The notes under the pieces: generated by a model
What the model was told of the DNA's origin: nothing
Databases searched by the model: none
The model's input: only the letters and a program-made list of their open reading frames with translations
Shown here: positions 1-9,090 of the stretch, piece after piece
Position numbering within the stretch: position 1 is the stretch's first letter
Layout: every line of letters begins with the position of its first letter
Assembly: GCA_965206595.1 (NCBI GenBank)
Contig: OZ242214.1
Location: 3,015,340-3,079,339 of the forward strand
DNA length: 64,000 nt
Direction: 5' to 3'
Source: Candidatus Latescibacterota bacterium
Lineage (GTDB): Bacteria; Latescibacterota; UBA2968; UBA8231
Made by a program: the position numbers and the translations under genes

Positions 1-33
1 GTCCTGACCCGCAAGCTCACCCTGCTGCGGTGA
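1..33 (+). CDS. 3' end of an upstream gene (partial): last 10 codons (VLTRKLTLLR*) of a T9SS C-terminal sorting-domain protein
   Basis: Translation of nt 1-33 gives VLTRKLTLLR-stop. This is nearly identical to the C-termini of the ORFs ending at 3412 and 9090 (GVLTRKLTLLR / VHTRKLTLLR). Confidence 0.5.
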   Translation, partial: VLTRKLTLLR

Positions 34-110
34 TTGGATCGGCCAACCTTGAGCATTGAGAATTAGCCTAAAACGTCCATCCGGACGAAAGCAAATTGTG
101 AGCCCTCGAG

Positions 111-6500: not shown

Positions 6501-9090
6501 GCTCCTGGTTTCGGCCGGGGGATGGGATGATCCCACGGTCCGGCTGTGGGACGCGGCCACACAGGCACAGGTTGCCACGCTAAGAGGGCATACCAGCGAA
6601 ATCCGTTCGGTGGCGTTCTCTTCCCCCGACGGCAACACCCTGGCTTCGGGGTCGGCGGACCGCACGGTCCGGCTGTGGAACGTGGCGACCCAGACGGAGG
6701 TGGCCACCCTGCAGGAGCATAGGGGTGCGGTCCATTCGGTGACGTTTTCTCGCGATGGCGCCACCCTCATCTCGGGGTCGGCGGACGGCAGGGTACTGCT
6801 GCGGGATTTGGAGACGGGCAACGTCGCCGGTCTCTCCGGTCATGAGCGCTTGTCTTCGATGGCATTTTCCCGTGATGGGGCCACCCTCGCCTCCGGGACC
6901 GCGGACGGCACAGTCAGGCTGTGGGACACGGAGACCCAAACACAGATTGCCAGGCTGGAAGGGCCCACTGGTTGGGTCTATTCGATGGCGTTTTCCCCCG
7001 ACGGCCTCCATCTGGCTTCCGGATCATGGCGCACGATCACGTTGTGGGACCTGGCGAATCGGGAAATGATCGCCACCTTCGAAGGGCACAGCGGTGACGT
7101 GCGATCGGTTGCCTTTTCTTCTCCCGACGGCGCCACCCTGGCTTCCGCAGGGGGGCGGAATGATGCCAGGGTGAGACTGTGGAACGTGGCGACACGCACA
7201 GAGATCGCCACTCTGGAAGGGCATACCGGGGGGATCTATTCGGTGGCGTTTTCTCCGGACGGCGCCACCCTGGCTTCGGCAGGAGACCATCAAGACAACA
7301 CAGTCAGGCTGTGGGACGTGGCGGCACGGACAGAGATCGCCACCCTCGAAGGGCATACCGATGGGATCTTTTCAGTGGCGTTTTCTCCGGACGGCGCCAC
7401 CCTGGCTTCGGCAGGGGTGTGGGATCGGACGGTCAGGCTGTGGGACGTGAAAACTCGTACGCACATCGCTACCCTGGGAGGGCATACGGGTGCGGTCAAT
7501 TCGGTGTCGTTCTCGCCTGACGGCGCAACCCTGGCTTCCGGGTTGTCGGACGGAACGATGCTGCTATGGAACGTGGCGACGAAGGGAAGAACTGCCACCC
7601 TGGAGGGGCACACAGGTTGGGTCCATTACGTTGGGTTTTCCGGCGACGGCACCACCCTGGCCTCCGGGGCCAGGGATGGCACGATGCTGCTGTGGGATAT
7701 GGAGTTTCTGCAATCCCGGCCCCATACCCTGACCAGGATCTCCGGCGTTGAGCAGCAAGGGCCGGTCGATGCGGCGTTACCCCAGCCGTTTGTCGTTTTG
7801 GTGCGGGATCAGAACGGGAATCCAGTGGCAGGTGCGACCGTCACCTTCGCGGTCACCGCCGGCGGAGGGACGCTGACCGCAGAGACCGCAACCACCGATG
7901 CAAACGGGCGCGCCGCCACCACCCTGACCCTGGGCCCCGATCCAGGACCGAACACCGTGACGGCGGCCGTGGCCGGGCTGGACCCGGTGACCTTTTCCGC
8001 GGCCGGGTCAGCGACTCCCCATACCCTGACGAAGCTCTCCGGCCACGACCAGCAGGGAGCGGCAGGCGCCGCCTTGCCCGAACCGTTTGTCGTCGAGGTC
8101 AGAGATCAGAAGGGCCAGCCGCTCGAGGGCGCCCAGGTCACCTTCGCGGTCTCCGCCGGCGGGGGGACCCTGTCGGTAACCACCGTCACCACCGATGCCA
8201 ACGGCCGCGCCGCCACCACCCTGACCCTGGGCCGCGATCCCGGGAGAAATACCGTAGTCGCAAGGGTCGCCGAGCTGAAGCCGGTGATCTTCAGCGCCAC
8301 CGGACTGGCGATTCCCACGACCCTGACCAGGGTCTCCGGCGACGATCAGCAGGGACCTGCCGGAGCCGCGCTGGCCGAGCCGTTTCTGGTCGAAGTGAGA
8401 GATCAGAACGGCGATCCACTCGAAGGCGCCCAAGTCACCTTCGCGGTCACTGCCGGCGAGGGGATGCTTTCGGCTGCCACCGCCACCACCGATGCCAACG
8501 GCCGTGCCGCCACCACCCTGACCCTGGGCCGCGAACCGGAGACCGTCACCGTGGTGGCGACCGTGGCCGGACTCGAACCAGTCACCTTCACCGCCACCGC
8601 GGAAGCCACCCCCGACTTCGACGGCGACGGCGAGACCGGCTTCTCCGACTTCTTCCTGTTCGCCGACGCCTTCGGCGGCAGCGACCCCCGCTTCGACCTC
8701 GACGGCAGCGGCAGCGTCGACTTCGGCGACTTCTTCCTCTTCGCCGACCACTTCGGGGACCCGGCCCGCGGCAAGCTGCTGGCGCTGGCGCGGGAGATGA
8801 TCGGACTGCCGGACGGGCCGCAGCTGCAGCAGAACGCCCCCAACCCCTTCAACAACGAGACCGTCATCTCCTGGTTCCTGCTGCGCCCGGGTGCGGCCCG
8901 GGTGGAGGTGTTCTCCCTGACCGGACAGCGGGTGGCGGTGCTGCACCAGGGGCCGGAGAAGGCGGGTGTCCACCGCGTGCACTGGGACGGCCGCGACGGT
9001 CAGGGCCGGCCGCTTGCCAGCGGTGTCTACCTGTACCGGCTGGTCACTGCCGAGCGCGTCCACACGCGCAAGCTCACCTTGCTGCGATGA
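3529..9090 (+). CDS. Giant (1853 aa) secreted T9SS cargo protein. Domain order: signal peptide, metzincin zinc-protease domain (HELGHTFGLYHD plus IMSY Met-turn), WD40 propeller (~7 blades), Big Ig-like domain, long WD40 array (~20 blades), 3 tandem Big Ig-like domains, dockerin-like double Ca-binding loop, T9SS C-terminal sorting domain.
   Basis: HExxHxxGxxH at nt 4171-4206 with a downstream FIMSYG Met-turn. Many LxGHxxxVxxVAFSPDG...ASGSxDxTVRLWD WD40 units. Big-like units ISGDGQQG...VTFTVTAGEGKLS...TDADGRA. DFDGDGETGFSDFFLFADAFGG / DLDGSGSVDFGDFFLFADHFG dockerin-like pair. C-terminal NPFNNETVISW...GVYLYRL...RKLTLLR. Confidence 0.85.
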   Translation: MRRRVTEVKHSPKKAFVLHSAFFAIASFTLLRPPAAHASPPPADSVHFCAFDHEQWRRDHPRPAAKRLADLNVGEPRTVRMIYFLPNDWPYRAVVVDSMKTVIKQSQSFYAEQMQAHGYGDWTFRIETDAQDEPLVHHVDGQHPFSHYDNTLGTAVVAELEQTFDLDANIYFIVLGTDALRQGNGQPAGGVGSRRTKNGGHLVVPDRFGFFTVTHELGHTFGLYHDFRDNRFIMSYGFDQRGVLSACAAEFLSVHTYFNSAIPIAEGQPPTVEIISSTRYQPGTTSVPVQLQVRDSEGLHQVSLIGNAKPCRGLAGEGDAVVEFDYDGSFWAGGFTNLSDQPRHHMLIVAVDGKGNVSETNSFLTEISPYKIATLRAHMDWVNAVAFSSDGTLASGSGSYELNDASVRLWDVESRKEIAILDEYTSAVTSVAFSRDGTLASVSFFDGIKLWDVVLRKEIATLKGRSPVAISPDGSLLASPSESGDHTIKLWDMRTRREIATFVGHTRQINALAFSPDGTLLASGSGEDDSPDKEDLTVRLWDVAAQTEVATLRGHSDGVWAVAFSSNGTLLASGGGWNDSTVKLWDVATQTEVATLRGHSFGVRGVAFPPDGAILASGAGDFTVRLWDMGSLKEVATFIEHTWTVKSVAFSPDRTTLASGSMDSTVILWDVSEWTGPRPFALEIISGDGQQGAPGAVLPHPLVVEVRDQYGDLLPEATVTFTVTAGEGKLSGRYSVEHTTTDADGRAELTLTLGPNPGPNIVGVSLGGRELETFHAKGVGTAVAELEGDYRTWHLPEGATVRLGKGALGESDRAVALSADGRCLAVASAIGVWLYEAATSRALALLPTESAVHSVAFSLDGTLAAGLDNGQVELWEVETGERIGTLRHANWGGVTVTFSPDGTRLASGSLEQVIKVWDIETRRVAGTWEVARDSDSYWDIPVAFSPDGSRLLSGFQDGTVRLWDVATQTEVVTLEGHTDRVATVSFSPDGSLLVSAGGWDDPTVRLWDAATQAQVATLRGHTSEIRSVAFSSPDGNTLASGSADRTVRLWNVATQTEVATLQEHRGAVHSVTFSRDGATLISGSADGRVLLRDLETGNVAGLSGHERLSSMAFSRDGATLASGTADGTVRLWDTETQTQIARLEGPTGWVYSMAFSPDGLHLASGSWRTITLWDLANREMIATFEGHSGDVRSVAFSSPDGATLASAGGRNDARVRLWNVATRTEIATLEGHTGGIYSVAFSPDGATLASAGDHQDNTVRLWDVAARTEIATLEGHTDGIFSVAFSPDGATLASAGVWDRTVRLWDVKTRTHIATLGGHTGAVNSVSFSPDGATLASGLSDGTMLLWNVATKGRTATLEGHTGWVHYVGFSGDGTTLASGARDGTMLLWDMEFLQSRPHTLTRISGVEQQGPVDAALPQPFVVLVRDQNGNPVAGATVTFAVTAGGGTLTAETATTDANGRAATTLTLGPDPGPNTVTAAVAGLDPVTFSAAGSATPHTLTKLSGHDQQGAAGAALPEPFVVEVRDQKGQPLEGAQVTFAVSAGGGTLSVTTVTTDANGRAATTLTLGRDPGRNTVVARVAELKPVIFSATGLAIPTTLTRVSGDDQQGPAGAALAEPFLVEVRDQNGDPLEGAQVTFAVTAGEGMLSAATATTDANGRAATTLTLGREPETVTVVATVAGLEPVTFTATAEATPDFDGDGETGFSDFFLFADAFGGSDPRFDLDGSGSVDFGDFFLFADHFGDPARGKLLALAREMIGLPDGPQLQQNAPNPFNNETVISWFLLRPGAARVEVFSLTGQRVAVLHQGPEKAGVHRVHWDGRDGQGRPLASGVYLYRLVTAERVHTRKLTLLR
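4171..4206 (+). other. Metzincin zinc-binding active-site motif HELGHTFGLYHD, with IMSY Met-turn ~10 codons downstream
   Basis: catgagctggggcataccttcggattgtaccacgat translates to HExxHxxGxxHD. Confidence 0.7.
7721..8611. repeat. Three tandem ~300-bp repeats, each encoding one ~100-aa Big Ig-like domain. A more divergent earlier copy lies at ~5572-5880.
   Basis: Units start at about 7721, 8021 and 8321. Each begins P(H/T)TLT(R/K)xSG(x)xQQG and ends TDANGRAATTLTLG(R/P)(D/E)P. Confidence 0.75.
8614..8760 (+). other. Dockerin-like tandem Ca-binding segments inside the 3529-9090 CDS
   Basis: DFDGDGETGFSDFFLFADAFGG and DLDGSGSVDFGDFFLFADHFGD (D.DGDG....DF..FA..FG x2). Confidence 0.6.

Follow-up and report, generated by a model that had tools for sequence, protein, structure and literature searches.

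Background

Proteins with signal peptides, WD40 or leucine-rich repeat (LRR) modules and C-terminal tails of the Por-secretion type (TIGR04183) were reported in Poribacteria of sponges by Kamke et al. (2014; PMC3909097). WD40 and LRR proteins have also been catalogued in sponge Latescibacterota (PMC12993501), and Robbins et al. (2021) described the route by which eukaryote-like repeat proteins reach the host as "largely unknown", with few lineages encoding classical secretion systems. Here we analyze a 64-kb stretch of bacterial DNA (contig OZ242214.1; hereafter, the window), which begins with the end of an array of genes for proteins of this kind. A preliminary description, made from the sequence, had presented them as giant cargo proteins of a type IX secretion system (T9SS); in light of the three studies above, its central observation is a known pattern. 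Our best explanation, to which we assign a probability of about 60%, is that the region forms one end of an array that varies among strains and encodes modular proteins with T9SS-type tails, exported by Sec and then secreted or placed at the cell surface, and that one of them, the protein P2, is an O-glycopeptidase.

The proteins of the window resemble those of Kamke et al. in their signal peptides, WD40 and LRR modules and sorting tails, in their apparent connection with sponge symbionts, and in that the secretion machinery was likewise not located. Moreover, the same tail, and the same protease family that forms the N-terminal head of P2, occur in many Poribacteria metagenome-assembled genomes (MAGs) among the related loci that we collected (81 loci, 1.47 Mb). 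The earlier work differs from ours in that it was a Pfam and TIGRFAM census of single-cell genomes, without architectures, a protease head or arrays, and in its host, which here is probably a member of the Latescibacterota.

Two further systems are close. Type A cargo proteins of the Bacteroidota T9SS (LRR proteins of the BspA family; gingipain, mirolase and KLIKK-type proteases) share the plan of a signal peptide, modules and a C-terminal immunoglobulin (Ig)-like sorting domain; BspA of Tannerella is a protein with such a C-terminal domain (CTD). In those organisms the T9SS has been demonstrated or annotated, whereas here it is a prediction from the cargo genes. To our knowledge, no Bacteroidota T9SS cargo combines an O-glycopeptidase head with multiple WD40 propellers. 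The second system comprises the enzymes OgpA (Amuc_1119) and Amuc_1438 of Akkermansia muciniphila (Protein Data Bank (PDB) 6Z2D, 8DF2; PMC7518263), to which the P2 head is 15–19% identical. OgpA is a 385-aa stand-alone enzyme of a gut mucin degrader from the Verrucomicrobiota and, unlike P2, has no WD40, Big_1 or tail modules.

We could not find previous descriptions of the OgpA-like identity of the head; of the way in which, in about 1000 clusters from several symbiont phyla, it is systematically fused to WD40 propellers, Big_1 and the tail; of a five-bladed propeller module found in the neighboring protein P1; or of a cassette formed by a dockerin-like module and the tail. Kamke et al. left the Por-type tail without a machine, and the locus bears on the same gap as a concrete, testable case in a symbiont from the superphylum Fibrobacteres–Chlorobi–Bacteroidetes (FCB), for which closed genomes with these genes now exist.

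P2 joins a predicted O-glycopeptidase head to propellers and a sorting-type tail

P2 is encoded by an intact open reading frame (ORF) of 1853 codons. Its features are as follows:

3529–9090, + strand: P2 gene, 1853 aa (signal peptide, OgpA-like head, seven WD40 blades, one Big_1, 14 WD40 blades, three Big_1, dockerin-like module, tail)
3529–3642, + strand: signal-peptide-like N-terminus, ending in ...PPAAHA, read from the sequence
3652–4653, + strand: head, two-domain O-glycopeptidase-like metzincin (catalytic domain and beta-sandwich)
4171–4203, + strand: zinc motif HELGHTFGLYH
4222–4239, + strand: Met-turn FIMSYG
4642–5541, + strand: first WD40 propeller, seven blades
5572–5871, + strand: Big_1 domain 1
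5896–7704, + strand: second WD40 array, a degenerate blade (5896–6039) and 13 clear blades, enough for two seven-bladed propellers
7729–8622, + strand: Big_1 domains 2–4, with a 297-nt tandem period and 68–71% amino acid identity between copies
8614–8757, + strand: dockerin-like pair of Ca-loop/helix motifs, DFDGDGETGFSDFFLFADAFG ... DLDGSGSVDFGDFFLFADHFG
8833–9090, + strand: tail and stop (TIGR04183, 37.7 bits; FlgD_ig, 37.5 bits)

The zinc triad, the catalytic Glu and the Met-turn are all present in the head (H215, E216, H219, H225, M234), and in an alignment of 18 head homologs the HExGHxFGLxH motif and the IMSYG Met-turn are invariant or nearly so. When the profile of the head alignment was compared with the PDB (hmmsearch), it matched Amuc_1438 (8dek/8df2, E=5.2e-11) and OgpA (6z2d, E=2.2e-7), with ADAM17 at only approximately 0.02. 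The P2 head itself scores 31.1 bits against Pfam PF12044 (cutoff 27). In an AlphaFold model of the head (pLDDT, the predicted local distance difference test, 83; pTM, the predicted template modeling score, 0.85), the closest match was with the Akkermansia O-glycopeptidases, with about 265 residues aligning over the catalytic and beta-sandwich domains. OgpA is defined by a two-domain layout, in which the domains jointly form the substrate cleft, and by a His triad with Glu and a Met-turn (PMC7518263). A generic ADAM or reprolysin head was rejected in favor of an OgpA-like one on the PDB profile scores and the model comparison. We thus predict that the head is an O-glycopeptidase of the OgpA/Amuc_1438 type with an intact zinc site. 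The invariance of this site across the head family, in turn, implies that the head is under selection as an enzyme.

The remaining modules were largely as the preliminary description had them. The metzincin protease that it announced is present and can be narrowed to an OgpA-like one; its term "eukaryote-like" does not hold for the head beyond a label, since the head is most like bacterial O-glycopeptidases. The four Big domains were recovered as four stretches of Pfam PF02369 (141.7 bits, cutoff 34.9). The WD40 blades do form two arrays (Pfam WD40, 586.6 bits), but they number about 21, i.e., three seven-bladed propellers, and not about 27; the second array has a 132-nt tandem period at 7119–7538.

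The dockerin-like module is recognizable as a double Ca-loop/helix motif, but its score against NCBIfam dockerin_GC (21.3 bits) is under the cutoff of 29, and Pfam Dockerin_1 gave no match to P2 at E<=1. Of 56 ORFs that bear the tail, 10 have the motif immediately before it, all of them in close relatives of the window; among 728 other large ORFs it is rare (5). This association and the weak dockerin_GC match are what speaks for a docking of the proteins into a cohesin-bearing scaffold, in a surface assembly like a cellulosome. Besides the low scores, no cohesin was detected in the window, and P1 and the third complete tail-bearing protein, P3, are without a dockerin-like module, so that we consider such an assembly very improbable.

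P2 is conserved in related strains and belongs to a large, combinatorial family

P2 is conserved as one unit in related strains. In L002, a syntenic locus of a related strain, window positions 3456–12227 align as a single 8.8-kb block with 86% identity, and the locus L017 encodes an intact P2 ortholog of 1828 aa with the same module order. In two cases the gene is in pieces: the L002 equivalent is split into three ORFs, on a contig with 2x coverage, and the ortholog in L001/L003 (OZ244619.1, an 18x circular chromosome) is split into 581 and 1143 aa (L001 5792–15089). Upstream of the split L001 ortholog lie three short head fragments (333, 173 and 153 aa), which look like decaying paralogs.

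These split copies could suggest that assembly produced the 1853-aa ORF as a chimera, or that a sequencing error created it by fusion, as could the relatives listed first, all of which were of 644 aa or less. This suggestion, to which we give practically no credence, is already contradicted: L002 is colinear over the whole gene, with its splits on the low-coverage contig; the L017 ortholog is intact; and several family representatives of 1500–1870 aa have the same module order. The limit of 644 aa in the word-index list was an artefact of fragmented ORFs, for the exhaustive search lists many relatives of 1000–3700 aa. It seems that many ORF fragments split by frameshifts enter the collection from long-read contigs of low coverage.

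P1 behaves differently from P2. Its body is not conserved in L002, where only the tail is found, and the 5' end of P2 resembles the 5' ends of neighboring paralogs in L002. It follows that the array varies from strain to strain and has a head/signal region and a tail that are shared.

The head family gave 480 matches in the word-index search, and 983 cluster representatives (50% identity) at E<=1e-30 in the exhaustive search. Among the best 150 of the 983 representatives, which are 318–3716 aa long, the head is present in 150/150, WD40 in 116, Big_1 in 91, and the tail in 48, at the very end of the protein in 47. The exact module order of P2 recurs in several independent 50%-identity clusters. 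The preliminary description had regarded its combination of modules as undescribed; for the fusion to an OgpA-like head we, too, found no description, but the general pattern is that of Kamke et al. and the order is not confined to P2. The longest representative (P0495) has 3716 aa. Other extreme members are a 1631-aa protein with about 33 WD40 blades and the tail (L001 16319–21212) and a 2183-aa protein with the head and five propellers (L007 9874–16423).

In a scan of reference genomes, the nearest heads (71–82% identity) were on MAG chromosomes of Candidatus Latescibacterota, one of them in a bin labelled Gemmatimonadaceae. More distant heads were found in many Candidatus Poribacteria and in MAGs of Gemmatimonadota, Rhodothermales and Bryobacterales. 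Judging by isolate names, many of the head-bearing MAGs apparently come from sponges or corals. The order of modules differs between lineages: Poribacteria proteins mostly have the permuted order WD-head-tail, and the lineage of the window has head-WD-Big-WD-Big-dockerin-like-tail. The P2 head is 82% identical to the head on OZ244619.1, while the TypA of OZ244619.1 is absent from the best 120 matches to the TypA of the window (all at least 69%). The cargo gene thus seems more similar than the housekeeping gene, which is a hint of lateral transfer, and the family appears to have been exchanged among symbiont lineages.

The same tail occurs on many module combinations, often in tandem arrays, both in the 81 related loci and in the 150 representatives. 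These combinations are what the preliminary proposal of domain shuffling onto a common tag would lead one to expect. Furthermore, the internal repeats (WD40, Big_1, five-blade units and LRRs) are visible as tandem repeats in the DNA, and therefore point to ongoing duplication.

If the head is an O-glycopeptidase, "eukaryote-like" proteins would be, at least in part, glycoprotein-processing enzymes for host mucus or matrix and not mimics only, and symbiont genomics would have to count and interpret such proteins differently. A contrary view is that the proteins are eukaryote-like effectors or host mimics that act on sponge cells, for example in evading phagocytosis, with WD40 and LRR as the active modules and the protease head as secondary. 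WD40 and LRR are recognized classes of eukaryote-like repeats (ELRs) in sponge Latescibacterota and Poribacteria, ELR proteins (shown for ankyrin repeats) conferred phagocytosis evasion in Escherichia coli, as cited in PMC8163846, and P1 has no catalytic module. Against a secondary role of the head speak the invariance of its zinc site and its retention in every one of the top 150 representatives while the other modules vary. In addition, no injection system is evident, and WD40 was not enriched in sponge MAGs (Robbins et al. 2021). We consider the effector view improbable as the principal function; it is, in any case, compatible with the O-glycopeptidase explanation.

The C-terminal tail

The tail closes P1, P2 and P3. 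The tail of P2 is given above; the other copies in the window are:

3155–3412, + strand: P1 tail (T9SS type A sorting-domain family) and stop (TIGR04183, 39.2 bits; FlgD_ig, 31.5 bits)
56576–56827, + strand: P3 tail, divergent (TIGR04183, 33.5 bits as an isolated tail and 28.3 bits when the full-length protein is scanned; FlgD_ig, 37.9 bits)
1–33, + strand: 3' end (10 codons and stop, VLTRKLTLLR*) of a tail-bearing gene upstream that is truncated at the edge of the window

A six-frame search of the window revealed no further copies. All three isolated complete tails exceed the cutoff of NCBIfam TIGR04183 (23 bits), and by this curated model the tail belongs to the T9SS type A sorting family. 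Pfam assigns the tails to FlgD_ig, also above cutoff (27 bits). The P1 and P2 tails are identical at 75% of amino acids (66/88, last 88 residues) and 77.5% of nucleotides, while the P3 tail is 43–44% identical to either. Hence, the shared C-terminal domain of the preliminary description is indeed one family in P1, P2 and P3, but its members are clear paralogs and not near-identical.

The preliminary description further counted three consecutive genes with this domain, beginning with the fragment at 1–33. The translation of the fragment does equal the last 10 residues of P1 (nucleotide matches, 26/33 to P1 and 28/33 to P2), and at the corresponding position syntenic L002 has a protein of about 1840 aa with the order head-LRR-dockerin-like-tail. 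Because only 10 codons are present, a shared domain of 80 aa cannot be verified for the fragment, and another ORF (111–716) stands between it and P1. The ORFs of P1, P2 and P3, in contrast, were all as reported (812–3412, 3529–9090 and 54074–56830).

Compared with the PDB, the tail profile matched the CTD of PorU (6za2, E=3.3e-5), the CTD of a translocon-bound substrate of Flavobacterium johnsoniae (8glj_D, E=0.006) and the CTD of PorZ (5m11, E=0.03). In the tail alignment, the PNPFN motif, the Gly before strand 4 (G36), a GxY motif and the basic C-terminus are invariant or nearly so; G36 is invariant, and a K/R is conserved in ...TRKLTLLR/K. In T9SS CTDs, a Gly in the motif of the beta3–beta4 loop and a Lys in the last strand are functionally relevant (PMC11285876). 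Judging from sequence, the conserved positions of the tail appear to correspond to these.

Across the related loci, a hidden Markov model of the tail gave 62 matches, nearly all of them 0–2 residues before a stop codon. About 56 ORFs end in the tail, and up to five such genes stand in tandem in Poribacteria loci. Plasmids of cultured Rhodothermus and Salinibacter encode annotated BspA-family LRR proteins and propeller proteins with the same type of tail.

Export route and proposed function

The proteins have a common plan: an N-terminal signal peptide, variable binding or catalytic modules, and an Ig-like C-terminal tail of about 85 residues. In the mechanism that we propose, Sec would transfer the protein to the periplasm, where the tail would be recognized by an outer-membrane translocon of the T9SS type. 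The protein would then be displayed on the cell surface or released. Once there, the propellers and LRRs may serve to bind host-matrix or particle ligands, and in the case of P2 the head would cleave O-glycosylated, mucin-like proteins. We take the family to diversify in two ways: modules are duplicated in tandem within genes, and modules recombine between the shared head/signal region and the shared tail.

Several observations weigh against this explanation. Family scans of the window proteins found no T9SS machinery genes in the window, none were found among the large module-free ORFs of the related loci, and no export-like gene recurrently adjoins the arrays in these loci. In the Poribacteria single-cell genomes of Kamke et al. 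(2014), which carry the same tail, no Por structural genes were found, and we found no paper reporting a T9SS in Latescibacterota, Poribacteria or FCB candidate phyla. The Pfam T9SS model PF18962 scores the tails at 16–20 bits, under its cutoff of 27, and the tail profile scores FlgD Ig domains (E=1e-8) better than PorU. The signal peptides of P1, P2 and P3 are signal-peptide-like N-termini judged by eye (hydrophobic, with an A-x-A-like end). On the enzymatic side, the sequence identity of the head to OgpA is low, as noted above, and the O-glycoprotein substrate class is our inference. Lastly, the sponge association of the organism is deduced from its relatives.

The observations on the tail and the machinery would suit a different interpretation, in which the tail is a FlgD-type Ig-like domain and not a T9SS signal here. 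It would then serve another export or anchoring pathway, or act as a structural or adhesive end-domain after Sec, and the proteins would stay in the periplasm or be linked to the outer membrane in some other way. The ranking of FlgD ahead of PorU, the Pfam assignments and the absence of T9SS genes from the window and among the ORFs examined in the related loci all favor it, as do the lack of Por machinery in the Poribacteria of Kamke et al., a phylum with many such tails, and the fact that this phylum is not among the T9SS-bearing phyla named in PMC11285876. Nevertheless, TIGR04183 was passed with a margin, the tail is always at the extreme C-terminus of proteins with signal-peptide-like N-termini, and its invariant positions appear to be those that matter in T9SS CTDs. 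Rhodothermota, in which this type of tail also occurs, are listed as possibly T9SS-bearing (PMC11285876); the Latescibacterota are placed in the FCB superphylum (PMC4454575); and the genomes of Kamke et al. were incomplete single-cell assemblies. On balance, we regard a FlgD-type domain without T9SS function as unlikely, although it deserves to be taken seriously. As to the T9SS tag of the preliminary description, family membership by TIGR04183 and similarity to the PorU, PorZ and F. johnsoniae CTDs stand, while PF18962 does not agree.

We also entertain, as a rather unlikely possibility, that the tail marks a non-canonical export route, be it a T9SS that has diverged strongly or another machine, which would be common to unrelated phyla of sponge symbionts (Latescibacterota, Poribacteria and Gemmatimonadota). 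Such a route would deliver to the host matrix a laterally exchanged, fast-recombining toolkit for cleaving O-glycoproteins and for binding by propellers and LRRs. If true, it would account for the passage of "eukaryote-like" proteins from sponge symbionts to the host.

Individual candidates for the machinery were rejected. The ORF at 9241–10278 (+ strand, 345 aa, C-terminal Phe), just downstream of P2, was considered as a partner like PorP/SprF/PorV. It had no NCBIfam or Pfam match at E<=1 and recurs only in syntenic L002; the arrays in general do not have it as a partner. Next to Poribacteria cargo genes, a 2464-aa ORF free of the modules (L061 13322–20713) was considered as SprA. It is repeat-rich and adhesin-like, and it matches a tandem-95 repeat model and, with 434.8 bits over 8 stretches, the repeat region of a model for myxosortase-dependent M36 peptidases. 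Five other large ORFs of the related loci were negative as SprA candidates, and the Rhodothermus and Salinibacter plasmid matches, considered as T9SS machinery, turned out to be cargo. The recurrent neighbors of the arrays are metabolic families (Gfo/Idh/MocA, PhyH, ThuA-like, SDR and LamG) and one further LRR protein.

P1 and P3

P1, immediately upstream of P2, has the following features besides its tail:

812–3412, + strand: P1 gene, 866 aa (signal peptide, GDAVGAV stretch, seven-bladed WD40 propeller, five-bladed propeller, LRR cap and three LRRs, tail)
812–901, + strand: signal-peptide-like N-terminus (MKTMIFIRNKFLSVLVVILMICALQDHCYA), read from the sequence
1076–1933, + strand: WD40 propeller, seven blades (Pfam WD40, 220.3 bits, 7 stretches)
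1982–2686, + strand: five tandem 47-aa repeats forming a five-bladed beta-propeller (aa 390–625; 141-nt DNA period, 84% matches)
2732–3100, + strand: Cys-containing cap and three 24-residue LRRs of consensus LxxLxxLxLxxNxLSGxIPxxLG (repeats at aa 692–763)

The plant-specific LRR class is made of 24-residue repeats with the consensus LxxLxxLxLxxNxLSGxIPxxLG. The three repeats of P1 fit this class, in agreement with the preliminary description, and score above the cutoffs of Pfam LRR_1 (40.2 bits), LRR_8 (33.9 bits) and LRR_4 (32.7 bits). The LRR region also has weak NCBIfam matches to XopAE, XopAC and XopL, and no Pfam LRRNT_2 match was reported.

The five-bladed propeller was absent from the preliminary description. 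It is 11–14% identical to the propellers of bacterial or plant-type glutaminyl cyclases and of YjiK (SdiA-regulated), with no evidence for the cyclase residues. Besides tail-bearing proteins, more than 1000 proteins, most of them unnamed, contain modules of this type, in combination with fn3, cadherin-like or CARDB domains.

Directly after the signal peptide, at aa ~45–70 (window 944–1020), P1 has 3.7 in-frame copies of a 21-nt tandem repeat, with 92% matches. The repeat encodes low-complexity GDAVGAV heptads, and the stretch could be a linker of variable length.

P3 lies in the last part of the window:

54074–56830, + strand: P3 gene, 918 aa from the ATG (signal peptide, TolB-like PD40 propeller, Laminin_G_3/pentaxin-like domain, divergent tail)

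The ATG at 54074 opens its signal-peptide-like N-terminus. The Pfam scores of its modules are 125 bits for PD40 and 69 bits for Laminin_G_3.

Host and other genes of the window

The best named matches of the TypA encoded at 15385–17256 are to Candidatus Latescibacterota (81%, 76% and 75% identity), and the host is probably a sponge-associated member of this phylum, as judged from its genes and relatives. The exact sequences of P1 and P2 have no record in the gene-position index. PhyH dioxygenases, sulfatases, a GH95-like protein and restriction-modification genes, all present in the window, are published traits of sponge symbionts; for PhyH and sulfatase genes, such content was described by Kamke et al. 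(2014) and Robbins et al. (2021). PhyH genes also stand beside the arrays in 12 related loci. Other features of the window are:

111–716, + strand: 201-aa ORF between the fragment at 1–33 and P1, outside the tail family (TTG start; lipoprotein-like N-terminus, ...LLSCVLQAGC; coiled-coil stretch)
24428–25732, 26158–26928, 47425–48159 and 49371–50888: four PhyH-family dioxygenase paralogs
13788–15254 and 36541–38046: two sulfatases

The ORF at 111–716 has family matches below threshold only and no homolog among the related loci. It lies within positions 1–2000, the GC minimum of the window (54.5%). An island of low GC (55–59%) at 40789–47462 (− strand) encodes a ResIII/DEAD helicase and a 1152-aa N6/N4 DNA methylase. 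Separately, a gene at 61076–63520 (− strand) combines SWI2/SNF2, type I restriction R domain 3 and Schlafen AlbA_2. The genes of both regions are probably mobile defence genes. Beside P3, at 57024–58961 (− strand), is a gene for an extracellular endonuclease like ExeM/NucH (170.9 bits, under the subfamily cutoff).

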